Shown: piece by piece, positions 3,007-23,296 of the stretch
Numbering within the stretch: the first letter of the stretch is position 1
How the letters are laid out: each line of letters starts with the position of its first letter
Assembly: GCF_001548275.1 (NCBI RefSeq)
Contig: NZ_AP014945.1
Location: 1,650,001-1,682,000, forward strand
DNA: 32,000 nt
From: Caldimicrobium thiodismutans
Lineage (GTDB): Bacteria > Desulfobacterota > Thermodesulfobacteria > Thermodesulfobacteriales > Thermodesulfobacteriaceae
Reading direction: 5' to 3'
Notes under the pieces: generated by a model
Databases searched by the model: none
What the model saw: only the letters and a program-made list of their open reading frames with translations
What the model was told of the DNA's origin: nothing
Position numbers and translations under genes: made by a program

Positions 3007-4212
3007 ATGCCCTTTTTTGAATGGAAGGGAAAATCTATCTCAGGTGAGATTCGTTCAGGGGTCTTAGAGGCTCCCAATTCTCAAATTGTAGAAGTTTATC
3101 TCAGAAGATTAAATATTATTCCAATCAAGGTAAATCAGAAGAAGGAAAGTGCCTTTAAAATAAGGCTCAAGAGAGTTTCTGATAAGGAGCTTGCCCTTTT
3201 TACTCGTCAGTTTTCAACGGTGCTTGAGGCTGGTCTTCCCATTGTTAAAGGTCTTGAGACCCTGGCTATGCAGCAGAAAAATATTTATTTTAAAGAAGTA
3301 ATTACAGATTTGAAAAGAAAGGTAGAGGCAGGAATGGCTCTTAGTGAAGGAATGTCCGAATATCCAAAAATTTTTGGAAATCTTTATCTTCAAATGGTTC
3401 GCTCAGGAGAGCAATCAGGAAATTTAGATATTGTTCTTAAAAGACTTGCCAATTACCTTGAAAAGATAGTTGCTCTAAAGTCTAAGATTAAACATGCCAT
3501 GATTTATCCCTCAGTTATAGTCTTTGTAACAATAGTTGTAGTCTCGATCATTATGTTTTTTGTTATACCTAAATTTGCAGAACTTTTTAAAGAAGCTGGT
3601 CAATCCTTACCACTTCCTACGCAAATTTTGATAAATATAAGTCAGAACTTTAAGAGTATATTTTTGTTTTTTGTAGTTTTTATTATTGCATCTGTTATTG
3701 GAATCAAATATTACCGGAAAAGTGAAAAAGGCAGGTATAATACTGACAAGATTCTTTTGCGTTTACCTCTTCTTGGCGAGTTATTTCATAAAGCGGCAAT
3801 ATCAAGAATTGCAAGGACTTTGGCTAATCTCATCGGGGCAGGCGTGCCTTTACTTCAGGCCTTAACCATTGCCGGGGAAACCTCGGGCAATAAAGTTCTT
3901 GAAAAGGCTATGGAAGATACAAGAATTAATGTTTCAGCAGGGCACACCATTGCTGATCCCATGTTTTTCACCGGTGTCTTCCCTTATATGGTAATTGAAA
4001 TGGTGCGTATTGGTGAGATGGCAGGTAATTTAGAAGAGATGCTTACAAAAGTAGCTGATTTTTATGAAGAGGAGGTGGATAGGACTGTGCAGACCCTATC
4101 CACCCTGATTGAACCAATTCTTTTAATCATCCTGGGGATAGTAATTGGTGGAATCTTAGTTGCCCTTTATCTTCCTATTTTCCAGCTGGGTGGAGTTGTA
4201 GGAGGAGGCTAA
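3007..4212 (+). CDS. pilC: type IV pilus assembly platform protein PilC / T2SS-F family
   Basis: 401 aa with two GspF-type repeats and hydrophobic TM segments (e.g. YPSVIVFVTIVVVSIIMFFVIP, and the C-terminal LIEPILLIILGIVIGGILVALYLPIF motif typical of PilC/GspF). The ATG directly abuts the guaB TAA. Confidence 0.9.
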   Translation: MPFFEWKGKSISGEIRSGVLEAPNSQIVEVYLRRLNIIPIKVNQKKESAFKIRLKRVSDKELALFTRQFSTVLEAGLPIVKGLETLAMQQKNIYFKEVITDLKRKVEAGMALSEGMSEYPKIFGNLYLQMVRSGEQSGNLDIVLKRLANYLEKIVALKSKIKHAMIYPSVIVFVTIVVVSIIMFFVIPKFAELFKEAGQSLPLPTQILINISQNFKSIFLFFVVFIIASVIGIKYYRKSEKGRYNTDKILLRLPLLGELFHKAAISRIARTLANLIGAGVPLLQALTIAGETSGNKVLEKAMEDTRINVSAGHTIADPMFFTGVFPYMVIEMVRIGEMAGNLEEMLTKVADFYEEEVDRTVQTLSTLIEPILLIILGIVIGGILVALYLPIFQLGGVVGGG

Positions 4213-4376
4213 CCAGACTTTTTCTTACAGCCTTTCTTGGCAGAACAGCTTGCTTTAGACTCAGACCCTGTTCCTTCTTTTACCATAGAATCTGCCTCTC
4301 CACAGGATGTGCACTTTTTAGGTTTACACCTTGACTCCTTAGTGGTTCCACATTTCTCACATTTCCAAACAGCCAT
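4209..4376 (-). CDS. small (55 aa) Cys-rich zinc-ribbon protein; below the ORF-track length cutoff
   Basis: My reverse-strand translation is MAVWKCEKCGTTKESRCKPKKCTSCGEADSMVKEGTGSESKASCSAKKGCKKKSG*. It has a CxxC...CxxC ribbon pattern and a strong SD (AGGAGGTG) 6 nt upstream of the ATG. Its stop codon overlaps the pilC stop codon. Confidence 0.55.
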   Translation of the reverse strand: MAVWKCEKCGTTKESRCKPKKCTSCGEADSMVKEGTGSESKASCSAKKGCKKKSG

Positions 4377-4438
4377 ATAGCACCTCCTGGAATTTTTTAT
4401 TTAAAAGTTAATCAAGAATTTTTAAAATTTCAATAATT

Positions 4439-4568
4439 TGTATGCATCCATATCCGTTGAGATCATAATCTACCTCTTTGGGCAGATAAATTTGTATTTC
4501 CTCTTATTTCACTTTTTCCCTGTTATCTCTTTCCACCCTTTCTTTTTCTTGTAAGCTTATGAGGAATT
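4439..4568 (+). repeat. intergenic inverted-repeat element, copy F (diverged)
   Basis: Left arm TGTATGCATCCATATCCGTTGAGATC and right arm TTCCACCCTTTCTTTTTCTTGTAAGCTTATGAGG align with the arms of copies A-D. Confidence 0.5.
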
Positions 4569-4627: not shown

Positions 4628-5668
4628 TTACCACTCAAAGCTTTGAACTACGATAATACCTCTCTCTTCTGCCATCTTTAAAGCTATGGGCTTGGCATAG
4701 TGAGTTACTATAAGCTTTACTACTTCTTTATCTCTATAAACCTTTCTAACTGCTATTTCCTTTTTCTCAATCTCTTTTAAGGCTCTATCAAAATCTCTTT
4801 TCCCCTCGTCAAATCTCAACTTAGCCTCTCCAACAAGCACCACTTCTTTTCCATTTACCCTTCCCTTTGCCAGAAAATTGATCTCCTCTCCTTCAATCTC
4901 TGTCCTTATAAATCTTTCTGTAACTTCTATTCCATATTTCTCCTTTAAAACTTTTGGAAGATTCCTGTAAGCTTCATTTTCAAAGGCATAAGAAAAAGTT
5001 CTTGTGAATCCACCAAACTCTTTTCTTAACTGGTGTAAATCCTCCCTTGTTTTTCTGTGCTCTTCCGCAAGCTTTCTTAACTCTTCTTCAGTTTTTTTCT
5101 GGGCTTCCACAAGTTTATTTAATTTTTCTTCAGTTTTTTTCTGAGCTTCCGCGAGTTCATTTACTTTTTCTTCGGTTTTTTTCTGGGCCTGGGCAAGCTC
5201 TTTTACTTCCTGAGCAAGTTCTTTAAGTTCCTGAGCAAGGGCATTTACTTTTTCTTCAGTTTTTTTCTGGGCTTCAGCGAGTTCATTTACTTTTTCTTCG
5301 GTTTTTTTCTGGGCCTGGGCAAGCTCTTTTACTTCTTCAGCGAGTTCATTTACTTTTTCCTCTGTTTTTTTCTGGGCTTCAGCAAGGCTTTTTACTTCCT
5401 GAGCAAGCGCTTTTACTTCCTCAGCAAGGGCATTTACTTTTTCTTCAGTTTTTTTCTGAGCTTCAGTGAGTTTTTTTATTTCCTCTTGGGTCTCTTTTTG
5501 AGCCTTAGTAAGGTCACTAACTATATTTTTTAACTCAAGAAAATCTTCACGCTTTACAGTATCACCAATAGATTTCTCAAGTTTTTCAAGAATTTTTATA
5601 AAAACTTTCCTAACAGGAGGCTCAAGTTCTTCCAGGGCTTTAATTATGTCTACCGCTAAGAGAGCCAT
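4628..5668 (-). CDS. coiled-coil repeat protein with C-terminal PD-(D/E)XK-like (DUF3782-like) domain
   Basis: 346 aa. aa ~55-205 are heptad-based repeats (AQKKTEEKVNELAE / EVKELAQ). The C-terminal ~130 aa (…GEEINFLAKGRVNGKEVVLVGEAKLR…) resemble the restriction-endonuclease-like fold with an E-x-K motif, as seen in thermophile DUF3782-type proteins. Confidence 0.7.
   Translation of the reverse strand: MALLAVDIIKALEELEPPVRKVFIKILEKLEKSIGDTVKREDFLELKNIVSDLTKAQKETQEEIKKLTEAQKKTEEKVNALAEEVKALAQEVKSLAEAQKKTEEKVNELAEEVKELAQAQKKTEEKVNELAEAQKKTEEKVNALAQELKELAQEVKELAQAQKKTEEKVNELAEAQKKTEEKLNKLVEAQKKTEEELRKLAEEHRKTREDLHQLRKEFGGFTRTFSYAFENEAYRNLPKVLKEKYGIEVTERFIRTEIEGEEINFLAKGRVNGKEVVLVGEAKLRFDEGKRDFDRALKEIEKKEIAVRKVYRDKEVVKLIVTHYAKPIALKMAEERGIIVVQSFEW
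5054..5506 (-). repeat. in-frame tandem repeats (42-bp and 21-bp units) encoding the coiled coil
   Basis: Near-identical DNA units recur about 8 times on the + strand, e.g. ttcttcagtttttttctgggcttc / gagttcatttactttttc. Confidence 0.85.
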
Positions 5669-5708
5669 ATTTTTACATTAATTCAACTTTCATAAAAATC
5701 AAGTGTGG

Positions 5709-5815
5709 TGTATAAGTCCCCTATCTTTTGAGACTCAAAGGTTTTTTTCTACTACCTTTCACCTCTTACCTCTCACCTTTTTACCACTTTTTTCAGAAGA
5801 ATGTGATCCTATACA
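5709..5815 (+). repeat. intergenic inverted-repeat element, copy A (short form)
   Basis: TGTATAAGTCCCCTATCTTTTGAGAC ... pyrimidine core CTACTACCTTTCACCTCTTACCTCTCACC ... GAATGTGATCCTATACA. The two ends are imperfect reverse complements. Confidence 0.7.
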
Positions 5816-8686: not shown

Positions 8687-9015
8687 ACAACACCTCCTTT
8701 TAAGTTTTTTTCCTTTCTTTTATAGAAAAAATTTTAATTTATCTAATCAGCAAGTCAAGGGTAAAAATTGCCTCACTAAAATTTATTTGAAATTTTATCG
8801 TTGCCTCATATAAAAAATCTCCTAAATTAATTCAGGAGGGGGAAGGGTGCAAAATCTAAACTTAAACGCAAAAGAAAACCTATCTATGATGAAAAGGTTA
8901 AGAAAGAGTGGCAAAAAGAGTAGGCAAAGAAGCTTTACAGAGAGATAAGGAGAAATCAGAGAAGACTTGAAAGAGCACTTTTAAAGAAAAAGGGAATTAT
9001 TCCCAGGATATAAAA

Positions 9016-10406
9016 GGTAGTATTATAAATTTTGTGTATAGATTGGGGAGGATTAAAGTTAAGTCAGTAACCTGGGTTGAATTTAAAAAAATTTGGTAAA
9101 ATGCCCTCCTAGCCTCTACCTAAAAACTAACCAGGAGGGCGAAAATGAAGGATCCGCTCTATGAGAACCTCAAAATTATTATACAACATCCTGAGAAAAA
9201 GAAAATACTTGAAAACCTCTTATTTAAGGAAATTAAAAATATGACTAAAAACCTTCTTGAAACCTTGATTTTGGAAGAAAGAAGAATTTTTTGTGAAGAA
9301 ATGGATGATGTGGGGAATGGATATTTCTTAAGGAGTTTAAAAACACCTTTTGGAGAGATAAAAAATCTTAGGGTGGCAAGAACAAGGAAGAAAAATTTTA
9401 AAACCGCTATTTTTGAGCCTTATTCAAGGGAATTCTTATATTTAGATGAGCTGATTTATTACATGTATGCTGGTGGGTGTTCTACGAGAGATGTTGCTAA
9501 CACCTTAGAAAAAATTTACGGGGTTAAATATTCTCCCACTTCTATATCTCGTATTACATCAGTTGTGACTAAAAAGATAGAGGAATTTAAAAATGCCCCT
9601 ATAACAAAGTGGTATCCTGTGTTATATGTTGATGGGACTTATTTAAAAGTCAGGCGTGGAGGTGTGACAGAGAATGAAGTAGTTTATTTTGTTGCTGGAT
9701 TAAGTGAGGATGGACATAAGGAGATTTTAGGATATTGGATACCTGGAGGAAGTGGAGAGAGTGCACTTAATTGGAAAGAGATATTTAAAGAACTTTATAA
9801 AAGAGGACTAAAGGAACCTCTTTTAGTGGTAGGAGATAACCTTCCTGGGCTTGAAGAAGCTGTAAAACTTATCTATCCTCTTGCAGATTTTCAGAGCTGT
9901 GTGTTGCATAAGGTTCGGAATACTTTGAATAGAGTAAGGAAACGAGAAAGACCCTGCAGTTGCAGAAGATTTGAAGGAGATATATGAAAGGCACGATGAG
10001 AGAGAGTGGAAGCTTGGATTTGAGAGATTTAAGAGGAAATGGGAAAGAATTTATCCTGATATAATAAGGTCATGGGAGAGGGATTTGGACAAACTTATGG
10101 TTTATTTGAAGTATCCTTATCCTTTGAGGAGATTTATATATACCACGAATGCCCTTGAGAGATTTATTAAGGAAGTGAAGAGGAGAGTAAAGGTTATAGA
10201 AGTATTTCCGAGTGAGGGTTCAGTTGATAAGATTGTTTATTTAGTAGTTGAGGAGATGAATGAGAAGTATAGGAGTAGGAGACTAAAAAATTTTGAGAGG
10301 ATAATAGAGGAGCTAAGGGGGGAAAGGAGGGCAAGATATGGGAGTGGAGAGATTAAAATTATTACAAATGAAAAAGAATTTTATACACAAAAAAGTTGAC
10401 ACTATG
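9016..10406 (+). mobile_element. IS256-family insertion sequence (~1.39 kb)
   Basis: Encodes a Mutator/IS256-type transposase. Imperfect terminal inverted repeats: GGTAGTATTATAAATTTTGTGTATAGA (left) against the reverse complement of the right end, CATAGTGTCAACTTTTTTGTGTATAAA (about 17/25). The flanks ATATAAAA and GAATAAAA share ATAAAA, a possible decayed 8-bp target duplication. Confidence 0.6.
9145..10399 (+). pseudogene. IS256-family transposase split by a +1 frameshift near 9940-9960
   Basis: ORF 9145-9987 carries YVDGTYLKVRRGG, GLSEDGHKEILGYW and FQSCVLHKVRN. ORF 9971-10399 (+1 frame, open from 9938) carries IYTTNALERFIKEVKRR. The expected continuous sequence ...RKRE|KDPAVAEDLKEIY... requires a 1-nt correction. 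Confidence 0.8.
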
Positions 10407-10575
10407 GAATAAAATTGACAATAGATAATGGGGAAGTTAAAATGATTTTAATTAGAAAATTAAATTTCGCAACGAAACCTATTTCAAATAGATTTTTAAA
10501 TGAGGCATTATGGGTAAAAATTAAAATTTAATACCCTGGTATTAAAACTATTTAATACTAAAGCCCTGTAACTTC

Positions 10576-11565
10576 TTAGAAGAGATTAAGCATTAAAGTA
10601 TAAAAAGTTAGTTCTGGATTTACATAAAAGTCAAGGGCAACCTTGGCTTTATACAAAATCCTCAGTGCTTCAGCAGGGTCTCCCTTAAAGGTTTCCTCAG
10701 GGAAGGCAGAGGGATAGGATATATCAACCTTTGCTTTCAAATAGGATCTCCAGACCCAAAGAGTAAGAAGATAAAGAAAAAGCTCCTGGGAATCTTTATC
10801 TAAACGGGAAAGCCTTTCTGCTATTTTAAAGCATCTTTCAATATTTTTACTCTCCCCTGCCTTAACAAAGGCGTTTAATTCCTCAAGAAGCCCCTTTTCA
10901 GCCATTTCAAGAGCCCTACCAAGGCTTCCTGAAGAAAGCTCCGCCAAGGTCTCTGCCATAGATTCATCTAAATCTCTCCTGAATAGATATTCTTTGATTG
11001 TTTCTCTGGCTAAAGGATGAAATCTTACCACCTGAGAACGGGAGATAATAGTGGGAAGAAGTTTAAGGAGATTTTCGGTTAGAAGTATGAAAATCACATA
11101 ACCTGGAGGTTCTTCCAAGGATTTTAAGAGGGCATTTCCAGCCTCAAGATTCATTTTCTCTGCCCTTTCTATAAGAATCACTTTATAGGGTGCTTCAAGA
11201 GGTCTCAGACGGATAAAGCGCTCAATAGACCGGATGGTATCAATACGAATGTCCCGTTTTTCCGGGGAAATCAACATCACATCAGGATGAAGCCTTTTTT
11301 TTAGCTTTTTGCAGGCCATACACTCTCCACAGGGCTTCTCAAAATTTGTTGCACAAAAGAGATGATAGATAAAGGCATAGGCCATAGTTTTTTTCCCCAC
11401 TCCCTTTGGCCCAACAAAGAGATAACTATGAGCAAGCCTTCCCCTCTTTAGAGCGGATTCCAGAAGACTCCTGGCTGATTTTTGACCAAACACTTCAGAA
11501 AAACTCAGTATGGAAGATGAGTCTGTCTCAGGCTTTGGAGGGATTAAAAATTCTTTTTCCTGCAC
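10576..11565 (-). CDS. holB: DNA polymerase III subunit delta'
   Basis: 329 aa. HSYLFVGPKGVGKKT Walker-A-like motif, a CGECMACKK zinc module and an SRSQ (SRC-like) motif. Confidence 0.85.
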   Translation of the reverse strand: MQEKEFLIPPKPETDSSSILSFSEVFGQKSARSLLESALKRGRLAHSYLFVGPKGVGKKTMAYAFIYHLFCATNFEKPCGECMACKKLKKRLHPDVMLISPEKRDIRIDTIRSIERFIRLRPLEAPYKVILIERAEKMNLEAGNALLKSLEEPPGYVIFILLTENLLKLLPTIISRSQVVRFHPLARETIKEYLFRRDLDESMAETLAELSSGSLGRALEMAEKGLLEELNAFVKAGESKNIERCFKIAERLSRLDKDSQELFLYLLTLWVWRSYLKAKVDISYPSAFPEETFKGDPAEALRILYKAKVALDFYVNPELTFYTLMLNLF

Positions 11566-14347: not shown

Positions 14348-14380
14348 AAGATAACAAAATTTTAAAAAAATACCAGTCCC

Positions 14381-14616
14381 TGTATAAGTCCATATCTTTT
14401 GAGACTTAAGAGGATTTTTCTCCTACTTCGGTTGTAGGAAAATGAACCTGTATTTTGTAGAGGCAAACCTATGTGTTTGCCATCTTTTGGAAAATTTATG
14501 TGTTTGTCTGTTATGAGGTCCTTTACATTATTGGGCAGACACACAAGGGCTTCCCCTGCTCTCACATCTTACCTCTTACCACCCTTTCTTTTTTCTTTTA
14601 AGGATGTGAACTTAGG
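14381..14616 (+). repeat. intergenic inverted-repeat element, copy B (long form with internal hairpin module)
   Basis: Left arm TGTATAAGTCCATATCTTTTGAGACTTAAGAGG and right arm CTCTTACCACCCTTTCTTTTTTCTTTTAAGGATGTGAACTTAGG. The ~130-bp insert includes the hairpin GGCAAAC-ctatgt-GTTTGCC (14462-14481). Confidence 0.7.
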
Positions 14617-14631
14617 CGGGGGGGGAAATAT

Positions 14632-16356: not shown

Positions 16357-16408
16357 ATGGTTAAAGTTTTCCTTATTAAACTTCTCTTTTTGAGTGTGTC
16401 AAGCCCCT

Positions 16409-16625
16409 TGTATGCGTTTATGTCTTTTGAGATATAAATCTGCCCTTACATTCAATCTAAGTCAATCCTTTTTGAATAATATTTATTTTCAGCAGGGGAA
16501 ACCTTATGTGTTTGCCCATTTGTGGCTATAGATTTGCCCTTCCATTGATTCTGCCCATATATTGATGATGAAATGTATGTGGTTTGAGTGGTTTGACCTT
16601 ATTTTTGCATAAGGAGTAACTTTTG
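16409..16625 (+). repeat. intergenic inverted-repeat element, copy E (degenerate; right boundary uncertain)
   Basis: Left arm TGTATGCGTTTATGTCTTTTGAGAT. The internal module GGGGAAACCTTATGTGTTTGCCCATTTGTGG is nearly identical to copy B (GAGGCAAACCTATGTGTTTGCCATCTTTTGG). The right arm is only weakly recognisable (GCATAAGGAGTAACTT). Confidence 0.4.
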
Positions 16626-16752
16626 AATCTATTGATAATTTGAACTAATTAATTGGGGGTAATGCTTTTGTTGTAAAGGTTAAAAATTCTAAACCCCTAC
16701 AAATTTTTACCTAAGCTTATAGAAAACGCAAAAATAAAATTTGATGAAATTA

Positions 16753-17799
16753 TTAGCTTTCAAAGAGTTTAAAGATATCTTCAGAGCTCTTCGCAAGAAT
16801 TATTTTCCTCAGCCACTCCTTAAGAACTCCTCTATCCTCCTCTCTTACCACCCTCTCTCTCACTTCCTCCGGCACATACCCGAGCTTCACCTCTATGGCC
16901 TCAAGCACAAGCTCCCTTGCATTCTGTATTAATCCCTGATATATCCCCTGTTCAATTCCCTGCTCAATCCCTTGCTTAATTCCCTGCTCAATTCCCTGCT
17001 TATAAAACTTCTCTCCCACTTTATCCCAAAAGCTCTTTAACTCCATCTTTACCCCCTCTTCTTCACAACTATCTAATATATTAAACCAGATTACCTCCCC
17101 GTCAACCCTGAACTTTATTTCAGATATCCTAATCAAAAATCCCATCTCCCATCTTCCTTTCTCCCCTATTGCTACTAATCTCTCTGTCGCCCTTGTAATA
17201 ACTTCAATTATCTCTTCAAAATCCAGTGATTCCGCCTTCATTAAATAAAGATAACACCCAAGCCCTGCTAAGATATCAAATATCCTCAATATCTTATCAT
17301 CCTCTACCCTCTTTAAATCAACCACATGAACCTTAAAAAGTTCTCCCTTTAACCCCTCTGGCACTGAAAATATCTCCTCTATCCTTTCAGGATAGCCCCA
17401 GGGCTTATCCCCTTCATAAAACACAAGAGGTAAAACAGGCACATACCCCTTCCCCTCCTTGAGAGACCTCTCATTTAATGCGGTTATGTAATTTAAAATC
17501 TGAAGGTAAATCCTTTTATCAGGTGCACTTTTGTGCTCAATGAGGATATAGAGATGGGCTTTGGTTGAAGGTTTACCTTCACTAAGGAGATTAACCTCTG
17601 CAACAAGATCTGGGATTTCTCGCTTTTTTCTTGAAAGGGAAACCTGTTCTTCAGGGATGATTTTAAGGGAGTCAAGGTCAAGATGAGTTTTAATGTGATC
17701 AGGGAGGAAGGTTGAGAGGAAGGCTTTTAAGTTTTCAGGGTCTTTGAGGAAGGCCTTGGCAAAAAGGTCATAGGGAACAGGAGGTTTCTTTCCTGACAT
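16753..17799 (-). CDS. Rpn-family recombination-promoting nuclease / putative transposase (PDDEXK_Transposase_31, YhgA-like)
   Basis: 348 aa. N-terminal PYDLFAKAFLKDPENLKAFLSTFLP...DLVAEV...YILIEHKS pattern, and a C-terminal QGIEQGIKQGIEQGIEQGIYQG repeat typical of this family. Confidence 0.8.
   Translation of the reverse strand: MSGKKPPVPYDLFAKAFLKDPENLKAFLSTFLPDHIKTHLDLDSLKIIPEEQVSLSRKKREIPDLVAEVNLLSEGKPSTKAHLYILIEHKSAPDKRIYLQILNYITALNERSLKEGKGYVPVLPLVFYEGDKPWGYPERIEEIFSVPEGLKGELFKVHVVDLKRVEDDKILRIFDILAGLGCYLYLMKAESLDFEEIIEVITRATERLVAIGEKGRWEMGFLIRISEIKFRVDGEVIWFNILDSCEEEGVKMELKSFWDKVGEKFYKQGIEQGIKQGIEQGIEQGIYQGLIQNARELVLEAIEVKLGYVPEEVRERVVREEDRGVLKEWLRKIILAKSSEDIFKLFES
16930..17001 (-). 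repeat. about six 12-bp in-frame tandem repeats (QGIE units) inside the Rpn-like gene
   Basis: The + strand reads aattccctgctc / aatcccttgctt / aattccctgctc / aattccctgctt, preceded by two diverged units. Confidence 0.8.
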
Positions 17800-17838
17800 A
17801 GAGGTATTTTGCCAGAATTTAGAGGTATTTCAAGATAG

Positions 17839-17943
17839 TGTATAAGTCCATATCTTTTGAGATTTAAGAGGATTTTTCTACTACTTCTCCTCTCACCTCT
17901 TACCTTTTACCACCCTTTTTCTTGTAAGGATATGAACTTATCC
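17839..17943 (+). repeat. intergenic inverted-repeat element, copy C (best-preserved short form, 105 bp)
   Basis: TGTATAAGTCCATATCTTTTGAGATTTAAGAGG-ATTTTTCTACTACTTCTCCTCTCACCTCTTACCTTTTACCACCC-TTTTTCTTGTAAGGATATGAACTTATCC. GTATAAGTCCATATC against the reverse complement of GATATGAACTTATCC matches 13/15. Confidence 0.75.
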
Positions 17944-17954
17944 CCCATTTCCCC

Positions 17955-18005
17955 CTTTGGTTTAAGGTTCATCAAAATTCTATTACAAGGATACTGAACT
18001 CTTGC
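17955..18005. repeat. solo arm fragments of the same element
   Basis: TTACAAGGATACTGAACTCTTGCC (17982-18005) resembles the right arm. AAGGTTCATC (17963-17972) resembles its reverse complement. Confidence 0.3.
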
Positions 18006-19303: not shown

Positions 19304-19356
19304 ATTAATTTCCTCCTACAAATATTTATAATATTAGCATCTCACCTTTGCTTATT

Positions 19357-19430
19357 AAAAAAACGAGGGACAAAAACTCCATAGCACCTAAGCTTAAAAG
19401 CCCTATTAGGAGTCTGTCCCTCTGTCCCTC
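19357..19430 (-). terminator. long-stem intrinsic terminator downstream of the thioesterase gene
   Basis: The minus strand reads GAGGGACAGACTCC...(28-nt structured loop)...GGAGTTTTTGTCCCTC followed by GTTTTTTTAA. The 8-mer TGTCCCTC is tandemly duplicated at 19415-19430. Confidence 0.65.
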
Positions 19431-22941: not shown

Positions 22942-23019
22942 AAAACACCTCCTTTGAAGAAATTGATGTGAATTGGTTTTAAATCATAAAATAAACAAGA
23001 GGAGACATCTTGTCAAGGC

Positions 23020-23272
23020 TTATGTTTGAGTCCAGGTCTTTTGAGACTTAAATAGTAAGGGTTTAAAATTTTATACCCCTTGAATTTTTTTGTGGGTCTG
23101 TTGTAGCACAGACATTCTTGTCTGTGTTTCTTTCATACATTGGAGTGTAATTTGCCTCCACAGGCAAGATTGCCTGTGTTACTTTTACAGACTTGTAAAG
23201 CCTTCCTTGTATAGATATCTAATTCCTCTTTTACCACCCTTCCTTTTTTCTTGTAAGGATCTGAACTTATGC
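23020..23272 (+). repeat. intergenic inverted-repeat element, copy D (long form, two internal hairpins)
   Basis: Left arm TTATGTTTGAGTCCAGGTCTTTTGAGACTTAAATAG and right arm TTTTACCACCCTTCCTTTTTTCTTGTAAGGATCTGAACTTATGC. Internal hairpins are CACAGACA-ttct-TGTCTGTG (23107-23126) and CACAGGCA-agat-TGCCTGTG (23159-23178). Confidence 0.65.
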
Positions 23273-23296
23273 AGCCCTTTTTCTTTTTAAAAAATT

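Follow-up and report, generated by a model that had tools for sequence, protein, structure and literature searches.

The window, a 32,000-nt stretch of DNA from a hot-spring bacterium assigned by neighbouring proteins to the Caldimicrobium group of the Thermodesulfobacteriaceae, carries an intergenic repeat family of six copies and one solo right-arm remnant. They are dispersed among genes for a 55-aa zinc-ribbon ORF, a coiled-coil protein, a TonB receptor, UppP, a methyltransferase, CorA, an Rpn nuclease and an HMGL/Cache protein. With corrected bounds, the features are as follows.

4439-4562 (+): copy 1, 124 nt, diverged; left arm TGTATGCATCCATATCCGTTGAGA, right arm with a 3-nt deletion (CTTGTAAGCTTATGA)
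5709-5815 (+): copy 2, short form, 107 nt
14381-14618 (+): copy 3, long-A form, 238 nt, a short form plus a 131-nt internal insert with the hairpin GGCAAACCTATGTGTTTGCC at 14462-14481; in the spacer between uppP and the methyltransferase gene
16409-~16722 (+): copy 4, long and degenerate, 314 nt; left arm TGTATGCGTTTATGTCTTTTGAGA, hairpin module at 16500-16516, right-arm-like end TAAGCTTATAG at 16712-16722
17839-17944 (+): copy 5, short form, 106 nt; left arm 17839-17862, pyrimidine-rich core, right arm 17919-17944
17983-18005 (+): solo right-arm remnant, TTACAAGGATACTGAACTCTTGC, 39 nt right of copy 5
23023-23273 (+): copy 6, long-C form, 251 nt; terminator-like hairpins on the + strand at 23105-23128 and 23159-23178

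An earlier note, made from the letters of the window, had described six MITE-like inverted-repeat elements here. The family is real: a repeat search combined with arm HMMs recovered six left arms and five right arms across the window, exclusively on the + strand and at no other sites. The arm strings lie where the note had placed them, the left one exact at 14381 and 17839 and the right one exact at 17919 and with two mismatches at 23248, where none is expected by chance. Its six loci stand, with shifted bounds: copy 1 ends at 4562, copy 4 reaches 16722 rather than ~16625, and copy 6 occupies 23023-23273. What it called arm fragments at 17955-18005 is the right-arm remnant at 17983-18005, probably the leftover of an older copy in the corA-Rrf2 spacer. 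Comparison with the open reading frames agrees that all copies are intergenic, the only overlapping ORFs being short and spurious; six of the ten spacers longer than 100 nt in the window are filled by a copy.

The left arm of the element is TGTATRMGTCCATATCTTTTGAGA and the right arm is TTCTTGTAAGGATATGAACTTATRCA, giving termini of the form 5'-TG...CA-3' (TGTATRMGTCCATATC ... GATATGAACTTATRCA). These imperfect terminal inverted repeats of 16-24 nt enclose a pyrimidine-rich core with no coding capacity. Complementarity between the arms, measured over nine complete copies, is 77.6%, compared with 17-46% when the partner is slid by one to three columns, and in the copy at 17839 the outer 15 nt are reverse complements at 13 of 15 positions, as had been noted. 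The division into short and long forms also holds, with window copies of 106-107 nt on the one hand and of 238, 251 and 314 nt on the other. The basic form measures ~105 nt, and the long forms, 190-315 nt, contain extra internal modules and themselves recur at several loci. At 106-314 nt and non-coding, the window copies are within the size range of miniature elements (<~500 bp). A search for target-site duplications of 2-9 bp with offset tolerance found none at 11 of the 12 copy boundaries, the sole exception being 4 bp inside a T-run, and none even at the two copies with identical left arms, in line with the failure of the first inspection to find any. For an 8-9 bp duplication of the IS256 type, at most five of nine flanking positions match at any copy. 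No autonomous element with the same ends was seen in the window or in the fetched loci.

Further copies exist outside the window, which removes the earlier note's refuting condition that there be none. Using exact protein matches to reach DNA of the same species, we assembled a sample of ~87 kb. Besides the window it comprises loci L002-L004, at 99.3% identity to it, and L047, L048 and L049; overlapping parts agree at 99%. L047 and L048 both come from assembly GCA_017880035.1, and L049 is 99% identical to L048. The sample holds 16 copies, or ~1 per 5.4 kb. Fifteen of these belong to the set of 16 copies used below for the layout around genes (six from the window, nine from other loci of the same species and one from a relative, L042); the sixteenth, in L003, lies outside that set. 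Two short-read contigs that are 99.7-99.9% identical to the window, L001 and L041, terminate within or exactly at element copies, and L041 ends 1 nt outside the left arm of copy 4. Such breaks are the assembler behaviour expected at a multi-copy repeat. Arm-pattern scans of collections of genomes, metagenomes and viral contigs, the genome scans being run with the minority arm variant, returned either nothing or single chance matches in unrelated organisms. These data establish that a Caldimicrobium-like bacterium harbours small non-coding repeats in high copy number; the family looks restricted to this lineage, as judged from genome scans made with the minority arm variant and not the majority GCGTCC.

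When the copies are read in the sense of the adjacent gene, all 16 have one layout: right arm, purine-rich core, left arm, spacer, a -35-like hexamer, 16-18 nt, a -10 and then the gene. In this sense the left arm ends ...GATATGGACGCATACA, that is, ...GATATGGAC(G/T)(C/T)ATACA. The junctions in the window, given in gene sense from the end of the left arm, are these.

Copy 1: AATTA, -35 TTGAAA (4428-4433); upstream of the zinc-ribbon ORF at 4209-4376 (-)
Copy 2: CCACAC, -35-like TTGATT (5697-5702); upstream of the coiled-coil protein gene at 4628-5668 (-)
Copy 3: GGGAC, weak -35 position TGGTAT, extended -10 TGTTATCTT (14348-14356)
Copy 4: AGGGGC, -35 TTGACA (16397-16402) of the corA promoter
Copy 5: CTATC, -35 TTGAAA (17828-17833), 16 nt, -10 CAAAAT, 6 nt, ATG of the Rpn gene (17799), on the minus strand
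Copy 6: TAAGCC, -35 TTGACA (23011-23016), 17 nt, TATTTT; upstream of the HMGL/Cache gene

On the other side of copy 2, a TTGACA lies 10 nt past the right arm and points to the TonB-receptor gene.

The distance from the arm end to the -35 is 5 nt in 10 of the 16 copies, 6 nt in four and 8 nt in one. In 14/16 the left terminus is thus followed, after 5-6 bp, by the -35-position hexamer of a predicted sigma-70-type promoter, and the orientation is the same in every copy; the exceptions to the spacing are copy 3, with its weak hexamer and extended -10, and the second copy of L047 (L047-2), with its 8-nt spacer. The hexamer is exactly TTGACA in nine copies and matches at five or more of the six positions in 12. 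Given a background TTGACA frequency of 3e-4 per position, nine or more exact matches among 16 copies, with two offsets allowed, have a probability of 1e-25. The last base of the arm carries 2.0 bits of information and the spacer ~0.1 bits, after which the content rises again at the -35 and the -10. The rule also held out of sample: a left-arm model based on only the six arms of the window, with the flanks left out, picked up seven independent loci, and each of the seven shows TTGNNA at offset 5, in five cases as an exact TTGACA. The short form would thus span roughly -41 to -145 of the predicted promoter. This docking at a fixed distance and in one orientation was missed by the earlier note.

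The downstream genes include four tRNA units (tRNA-Met/Cys, tRNA-Ser, tRNA-Leu and one further tRNA), in which the mature tRNA 5' ends follow 7-15 nt past the -10; every tRNA promoter in the sample (4/4) is occupied by an element. The others are rimP(-nusA), a sigma-70-family gene, ribBA, corA, the methyltransferase gene, HMGL/Cache, Rpn and the zinc-ribbon ORF. Orientation tracks the gene and not the strand: copies before + strand genes in L047, L048 and L049 are inverted, the left arm faces the downstream gene in all seven cases of same-strand gene pairs, and the divergent tRNA-Leu/rimP spacer contains two copies, each docked on its own promoter. The right end follows no comparable promoter-distance rule. 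In L003 and L004 an A-tract replaces the outer half of the arm. The -10 of copy 2 is poor, and some other -10 assignments are weak. That the hexamers beside the arms are parts of working promoters is strongly suggested at the tRNA units and less so for copy 2 and the other exceptions.

The left arm itself gave no match to sigma-54, sigma-28 or ECF promoters or to an IHF site, judged by eye against their consensus sequences. An outward-facing or junction promoter, with a right-arm TTGTAA 17 nt from the end and the TATAAG of some left arms, was set aside: its two boxes would be 19 nt apart, and the majority GCGTCC variant lacks the -10-like box. An inverton was likewise rejected, with the polarity of the core relative to the arms constant in 16/16 and the predicted promoter outside the element.

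To get a view of the sites with and without the element, we compared the window with its relatives, and on this comparison the copies are inserted DNA. Loci L043-L046 (72% UppP identity) retain the gene order corA-uppP-methyltransferase, with a uppP-methyltransferase spacer of 27 nt versus 284 nt in the window, where it includes copy 3. The same loci keep the corA promoter (TTGACA ... TTTAATA; TTGACA, 17 nt, TTAATA) without the element, and in L043 an A/T-rich tract stands at the position of the window's corA arm. The closer relative L042 (82% identity) has diverged arms in its corA-Rrf2 spacer, with a different hairpin-repeat family in the interior; as these arms are already present there, insertion of the corA copy must be old. 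Copy 6 has a 92%-identical counterpart at a different locus (L049, 12788-13046), upstream of ribBA. At the Rpn gene, the window reads ...TTATACA|CTATC|TTGAAATACCTCTAAATTCTGGCAAAAT from arm through spacer to promoter. Three paralogous Rpn units (in L047 and L048/L049) have the same promoter and no arm, and the five bases before it are ATTTC or CTCTC. These resemble the CTATC of the window, which indicates that the five-base spacer is part of the target. Comparison of occupied and empty sites thus assigns both the 5-6 bp spacer and the -35 to the host and not to the element. Neither a recent pair of occupied and empty sites at strain level nor an enzyme for the insertion was found.

A mobile promoter cassette that brings its own -35 was accordingly rejected: the -35/-10 of corA pre-exists in a relative without the element, that of Rpn is found in paralogous units without the element, and near-identical copies have nothing in common past the arm end, neither in the sequence of the 5-6 nt spacer nor in that between the -35 and the -10. 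The MITE-like description in the earlier note is partly supported: the inverted repeats are non-coding, dispersed, inserted and polymorphic for presence between relatives (absent at the corA and uppP-methyltransferase sites of L043-L046); the missing target duplication and the docking at promoters are unlike ordinary miniature transposons.

The explanation we favor, with a probability of about 60%, is a mobile repeat docked at promoters, brought there by target-directed insertion, kept there as an upstream promoter region, or both; its mechanism is a matter of inference. Neutral insertion followed by tolerance is excluded by the single orientation and the 5-6 bp distance, which hold even in spacers of 400-900 nt. 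Placement would then be non-neutral, and target-directed insertion is its most economical reading and the one we prefer. On this model, the window does not encode the enzyme, which would act in trans, recognize the promoter or the RNA polymerase bound to it, and attach the left end at ~-41 with no duplication of the target. A new upstream promoter region would thereby be formed by the conserved left arm, in the usual position of an UP element or activator site, and such a role may explain the persistence of copies at the tRNA, rimP and corA promoters, although the arm differs from a classical UP element in not being A/T-rich. That the machinery specifically reads sigma-70 promoters, at the -35 region or through bound RNA polymerase, inserting ~5 bp upstream in fixed orientation and favoring strong (tRNA) promoters, we put forward only tentatively. 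The chief alternative to targeting is that copies are selected for a regulatory role upstream of the promoter; such selection could yield the same geometry, and it may act as well.

In its pure form, the regulatory alternative holds that the repeat is a cis-regulatory upstream module and not a transposon, with arms that bind a global factor or nucleoid protein or act in an UP-like manner, and with copies spread by recombination or gene conversion. We consider this rather unlikely. Phasing and orientation relative to the -35 are indeed fixed, and the best-conserved blocks include, besides the termini, the internal motifs TCTTTTGAGA, TACCACCC and CTTGTAAGGAT. The left and right arms each retain their own variant (GCGTCC versus AAGTTC) without compensating changes. 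Copies 3 and 5 are 96% identical in their left halves and differ in their right halves, a pattern that suggests gene conversion, and the corA copy has been kept since the split from the relative at 82% identity, L042. However, the downstream genes are functionally unrelated (tRNAs, rimP, corA, ribBA, Rpn nuclease, methyltransferase, zinc-ribbon peptide); homology stops sharply at the arm end, with none of the common flank that recombination would need; long forms keep the same ends around unrelated inserts; and sister species have the same conserved promoters without the element. This alternative overlaps the functional half of the promoter-docked explanation.

It is improbable that the family is an ordinary selfish miniature transposon derived from IS256, inserting near-randomly between genes and merely tolerated by promoters. 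The earlier note had raised a non-autonomous IS256 derivative on seeing the arm motif AAGTCC in the register of the IS256 end, which it gave correctly as GATAAAGTCCGTATAATTGTG, a sequence that has been used as a primer (PMC4207318). Terminal inverted repeats, small size, the lack of an ORF, many copies and presence/absence between relatives all suit such an origin, and the window does encode an IS256-family transposase. The likeness of the arms is confined to three of the six window copies, which have AAGTCCnTAT in common with the IS256 end and match it at 10 of 14 positions, in a register that requires the first T to be dropped; most copies in the species read GCGTCC instead. Against descent from IS256 are also the TG...CA termini, where GA/GG would be expected, and the absence of an 8-9 bp target duplication, or of any of 2-9 bp. 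The note was right that the resident IS256-family element has different ends: they show no match to the arms, and its transposase-less derivatives form a different repeat family. Finally, random insertion cannot account for a single orientation combined with a gap of 5-6 bp to the -35. The IS256 derivation is therefore not supported.

The multi-copy Rpn genes (YhgA-like, PF04754), nucleases also annotated as 'putative transposase', might mobilize the element or use it as a recombination substrate, which we regard as highly improbable. An Rpn gene adjoins a copy in all four Rpn loci (window 16753-17799, L047, L048 and L049), 18 members make up the Rpn cluster at 90% identity, and the homology between the window and L047 Rpn units extends ~80 nt beyond the stop codon, taking in right-arm-like sequence. 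Rpn proteins are reported to promote RecA-independent recombination in E. coli (PMC5350276), whereas the current view is of toxin or defence nucleases (PMC10400941). Six of eight Rpn flanks have an element, which is no enrichment because six of the ten window spacers over 100 nt are occupied. Moreover, the orientation of the element relative to Rpn varies between loci, and L048 has no arm 3' of Rpn. We reject the Rpn gene as an autonomous partner, since element density accounts for the adjacency.

The least probable reading is an RNA: either a small-RNA gene running from the left-arm TTGAGA to the right arm and ending at the long-form hairpins, or a 5' leader structure formed by arm pairing. 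No hexamer is better conserved than TTGAGA, which in copy 6 is followed after 17 nt by TAAAAT and then by the two terminator-like + strand hairpins; the hairpin module AAACCTATGTGTTTGCC keeps a constant orientation in long forms at four loci, and the minus strand of copy 5 folds with z = -3.1. However, copies other than copy 6 are missing a correctly spaced -10, the fold z of the other short copies is +0.35 to +1.1 or -0.4, and arm covariation is not above shuffles (147/500 and 223/500), with wobble positions favoring different strands at different pairs. Rfam gave no matches at the gathering score or at E <= 1, and the element, being upstream of the predicted promoters, would fall outside the downstream mRNA. 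The signature that the earlier note had associated with a structured regulatory RNA, namely fixation across distant genera with compensatory changes, was not seen in the relatives' loci or in arm covariation. A structured RNA is thus not supported.

We know of no bacterial element that targets promoter -35 boxes in general. If the docking rule applies genome-wide, this would be the first bacterial repeat family known to us to be placed base-precisely at many unrelated -35 boxes, including those of tRNAs and rimP-nusA. Should targeting be true, it would imply an unknown promoter-recognizing insertion system, of value as a tool and bearing on how mobile DNA spares genes; should selection be true, the element would be a portable upstream promoter module in a thermophile, making promoter rewiring by mobile DNA directly testable. 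Either way, the elements explain short-read assembly breaks at most promoter-containing spacers of the lineage, and would flag promoters, and hence the starts of transcription units, in an uncultivated group.

Among known systems, REP/REPIN sequences, which are short G+C-rich palindromes usually 3' of genes and linked to a RAYT transposase, can be set aside: here the arms, of 16-24 nt, are rich in A/T, the core is non-palindromic, the copies lie 5' of genes beside promoters, and no RAYT gene was seen in the loci examined. IS256 and its derived miniature elements are partly similar in the outer arm (AAGTCCnTAT), and differ in the 8-9 bp duplication, the termini and the majority GCGTCC discussed above. 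Insertion at a fixed distance and orientation with respect to a recognized site or a bound transcription complex is a property of Tn7 at attTn7, and of Ty3 and TRE5-A upstream of eukaryotic tRNA genes. As a functional analogy only, such selector-directed insertion shares with the family described here the termini TGT...ACA, as in Tn7, and the occupation of tRNA promoters (4/4). Tn7 makes 5-bp duplications at one chromosomal site; here, the element is linked neither to a TnsD/TniQ-like gene nor to one for another selector. By the same analogy, promoter-reading insertion would be a prokaryotic counterpart of tRNA-gene targeting by Ty3 and TRE5-A.

The ERIC/IRU sequences of enterobacteria are imperfect palindromes of ~127 bp; their longer variants arise by internal insertion at fixed points, and their effect on neighbouring genes depends on orientation. 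They are similar to our family as imperfect palindromic intergenic repeats with longer, internally inserted variants. Unlike the ERICs, which are located within transcribed regions and work at the level of RNA, the copies here are upstream of predicted promoters and have no RNA-structure signal. Correia elements (CREE/NEMIS) of Neisseria are also intergenic, ~100-155 bp long, with terminal inverted repeats and short and long subtypes. They contain their own promoters and an IHF site, and duplicate a TA target. In contrast, our element has no duplication, a host-derived promoter and a left end locked 5-6 bp from the -35. Hundreds of Correia copies exist, mostly immediately upstream of genes, and affect promoters (PMC10969869). 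A fixed distance and orientation to a host -35 have not been reported for them. Putative mobile promoters (Matus-Garcia, Nijveen and van Passel 2012; PMC3575422) are similar non-coding sequences before unrelated genes, with an unknown mobilization mechanism. Like our family, they are highly similar non-coding DNA upstream of unrelated genes in one genome. They are defined by similarity from -150 to -50 alone, with no fixed -35 junction or terminal inverted repeats, whereas the repeated unit here stops sharply 5-6 bp before the -35 and so excludes the core promoter. Correia elements, putative mobile promoters and ERICs (PMC10969869, PMC3575422) are the nearest known kinds, none of them described with a base-precise, oriented junction to a host -35. 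The family is best placed as a variant of the miniature-transposon/mobile-promoter kind, set apart from strict membership by the absence of a target duplication.

Relative to the locus L042, from a relative at 82% identity, the window carries an inserted gene between corA and the Rrf2 gene, with an internal repeat array:

16753-17799, minus strand: Rpn/YhgA-like nuclease gene (PF04754)
16934-17000: 12-nt repeat array inside the Rpn gene

The Rpn gene is multi-copy, with 18 members in its 90% cluster, and THC_0837 of C. thiodismutans is 96% identical to the protein encoded in the window. When the Rpn units of the window (16678-16752) and of the same-species locus L047 (3424-3501) were compared, their homology was found to run about 80 nt beyond the stop codon and to end within a copy of the inverted-repeat element, just past its right arm. 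Dispersed copies of the element may provide portable homology for the movement of neighbouring genes.

At the 5' end of the Rpn gene (window 17793-17833), as at that of rimP in the same-species locus L048 (15111-15155), a -10 sequence (CAAAAT or TAAAAT) is followed after 6 nt by the ATG. No Shine-Dalgarno sequence lies between the -10 sequence and the ATG of either gene, and both appear to be leaderless.

Synteny with the same-species loci L002, L003 and L004 is lost at window 19325-19393, a short way upstream of the gene for the 4HBT thioesterase. The window and these three GCA_017880035.1 contigs are 99.3% identical rightward of the break; on its other side, L002 has an IS607/IS605-type unit (resolvase and OrfB/TnpB-like gene), and L003 and L004 have rhamnose and capsule genes.

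In sister species, hairpin repeats of a different family (for example, GGTAGCCGCAAGACCTTTAGCCTGCG) occupy the same spacers:

L042 8780-8900 and 10800-10990: hairpin repeats
L005-L007, upstream of the CBS gene: hairpin repeats, from the alignment

In the corA-Rrf2 spacer they sit within an old copy of the element. Between close lineages, intergenic repeat families seem to take one another's place.

The earlier note placed an IS256-like copy at 9016-10406. An IS256-family transposase is indeed encoded there, but these bounds are probably too small:

9145-9987 and 9971-10399: IS256-family transposase, frameshifted

The transposase lies between two mutually inverted copies (8766-8826 and 10478-10520) of a second family of repeats, GAATTGCCTCATTAAAAATCTATTTGAAATTTTATCGTTGCCTCATATAAAAA, and the full IS therefore probably spans about 1.75 kb (8766-10520). 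The GAATTGCCTCATTAAAAATCTATTTGAAATTTTATCGTTGCCTCATATAAAAA family also occurs without transposase at L048 12150-12490 and L047 ~10950-11110; both versions retain about 130 nt from the IS 5' region and appear to be the resident IS's true miniature derivative.

Internal repeats mark another window gene as well:

4628-5668, minus strand: gene for a 346-aa coiled-coil protein

It contains at least eight tandem 42-nt repeats (5020-5522), each encoding a 14-residue coiled-coil unit, AQKKTEEKVNELAE; no Pfam family matches the protein at a score above the curated cut-off. Nearby, a 55-aa zinc-ribbon-like ORF with two CxxC motifs (4209-4376, minus strand) is preceded by a good Shine-Dalgarno sequence and has no called-gene record in the protein collection.

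The 12-nt array of the Rpn gene encodes a variable tetrapeptide repeat, QGIE/QGIK, and the paralogues measure 348, 344, 336 and 332 aa. This variation fits the repeat variation reported (PMC10400941) for Rpn toxins that have internal antitoxins.
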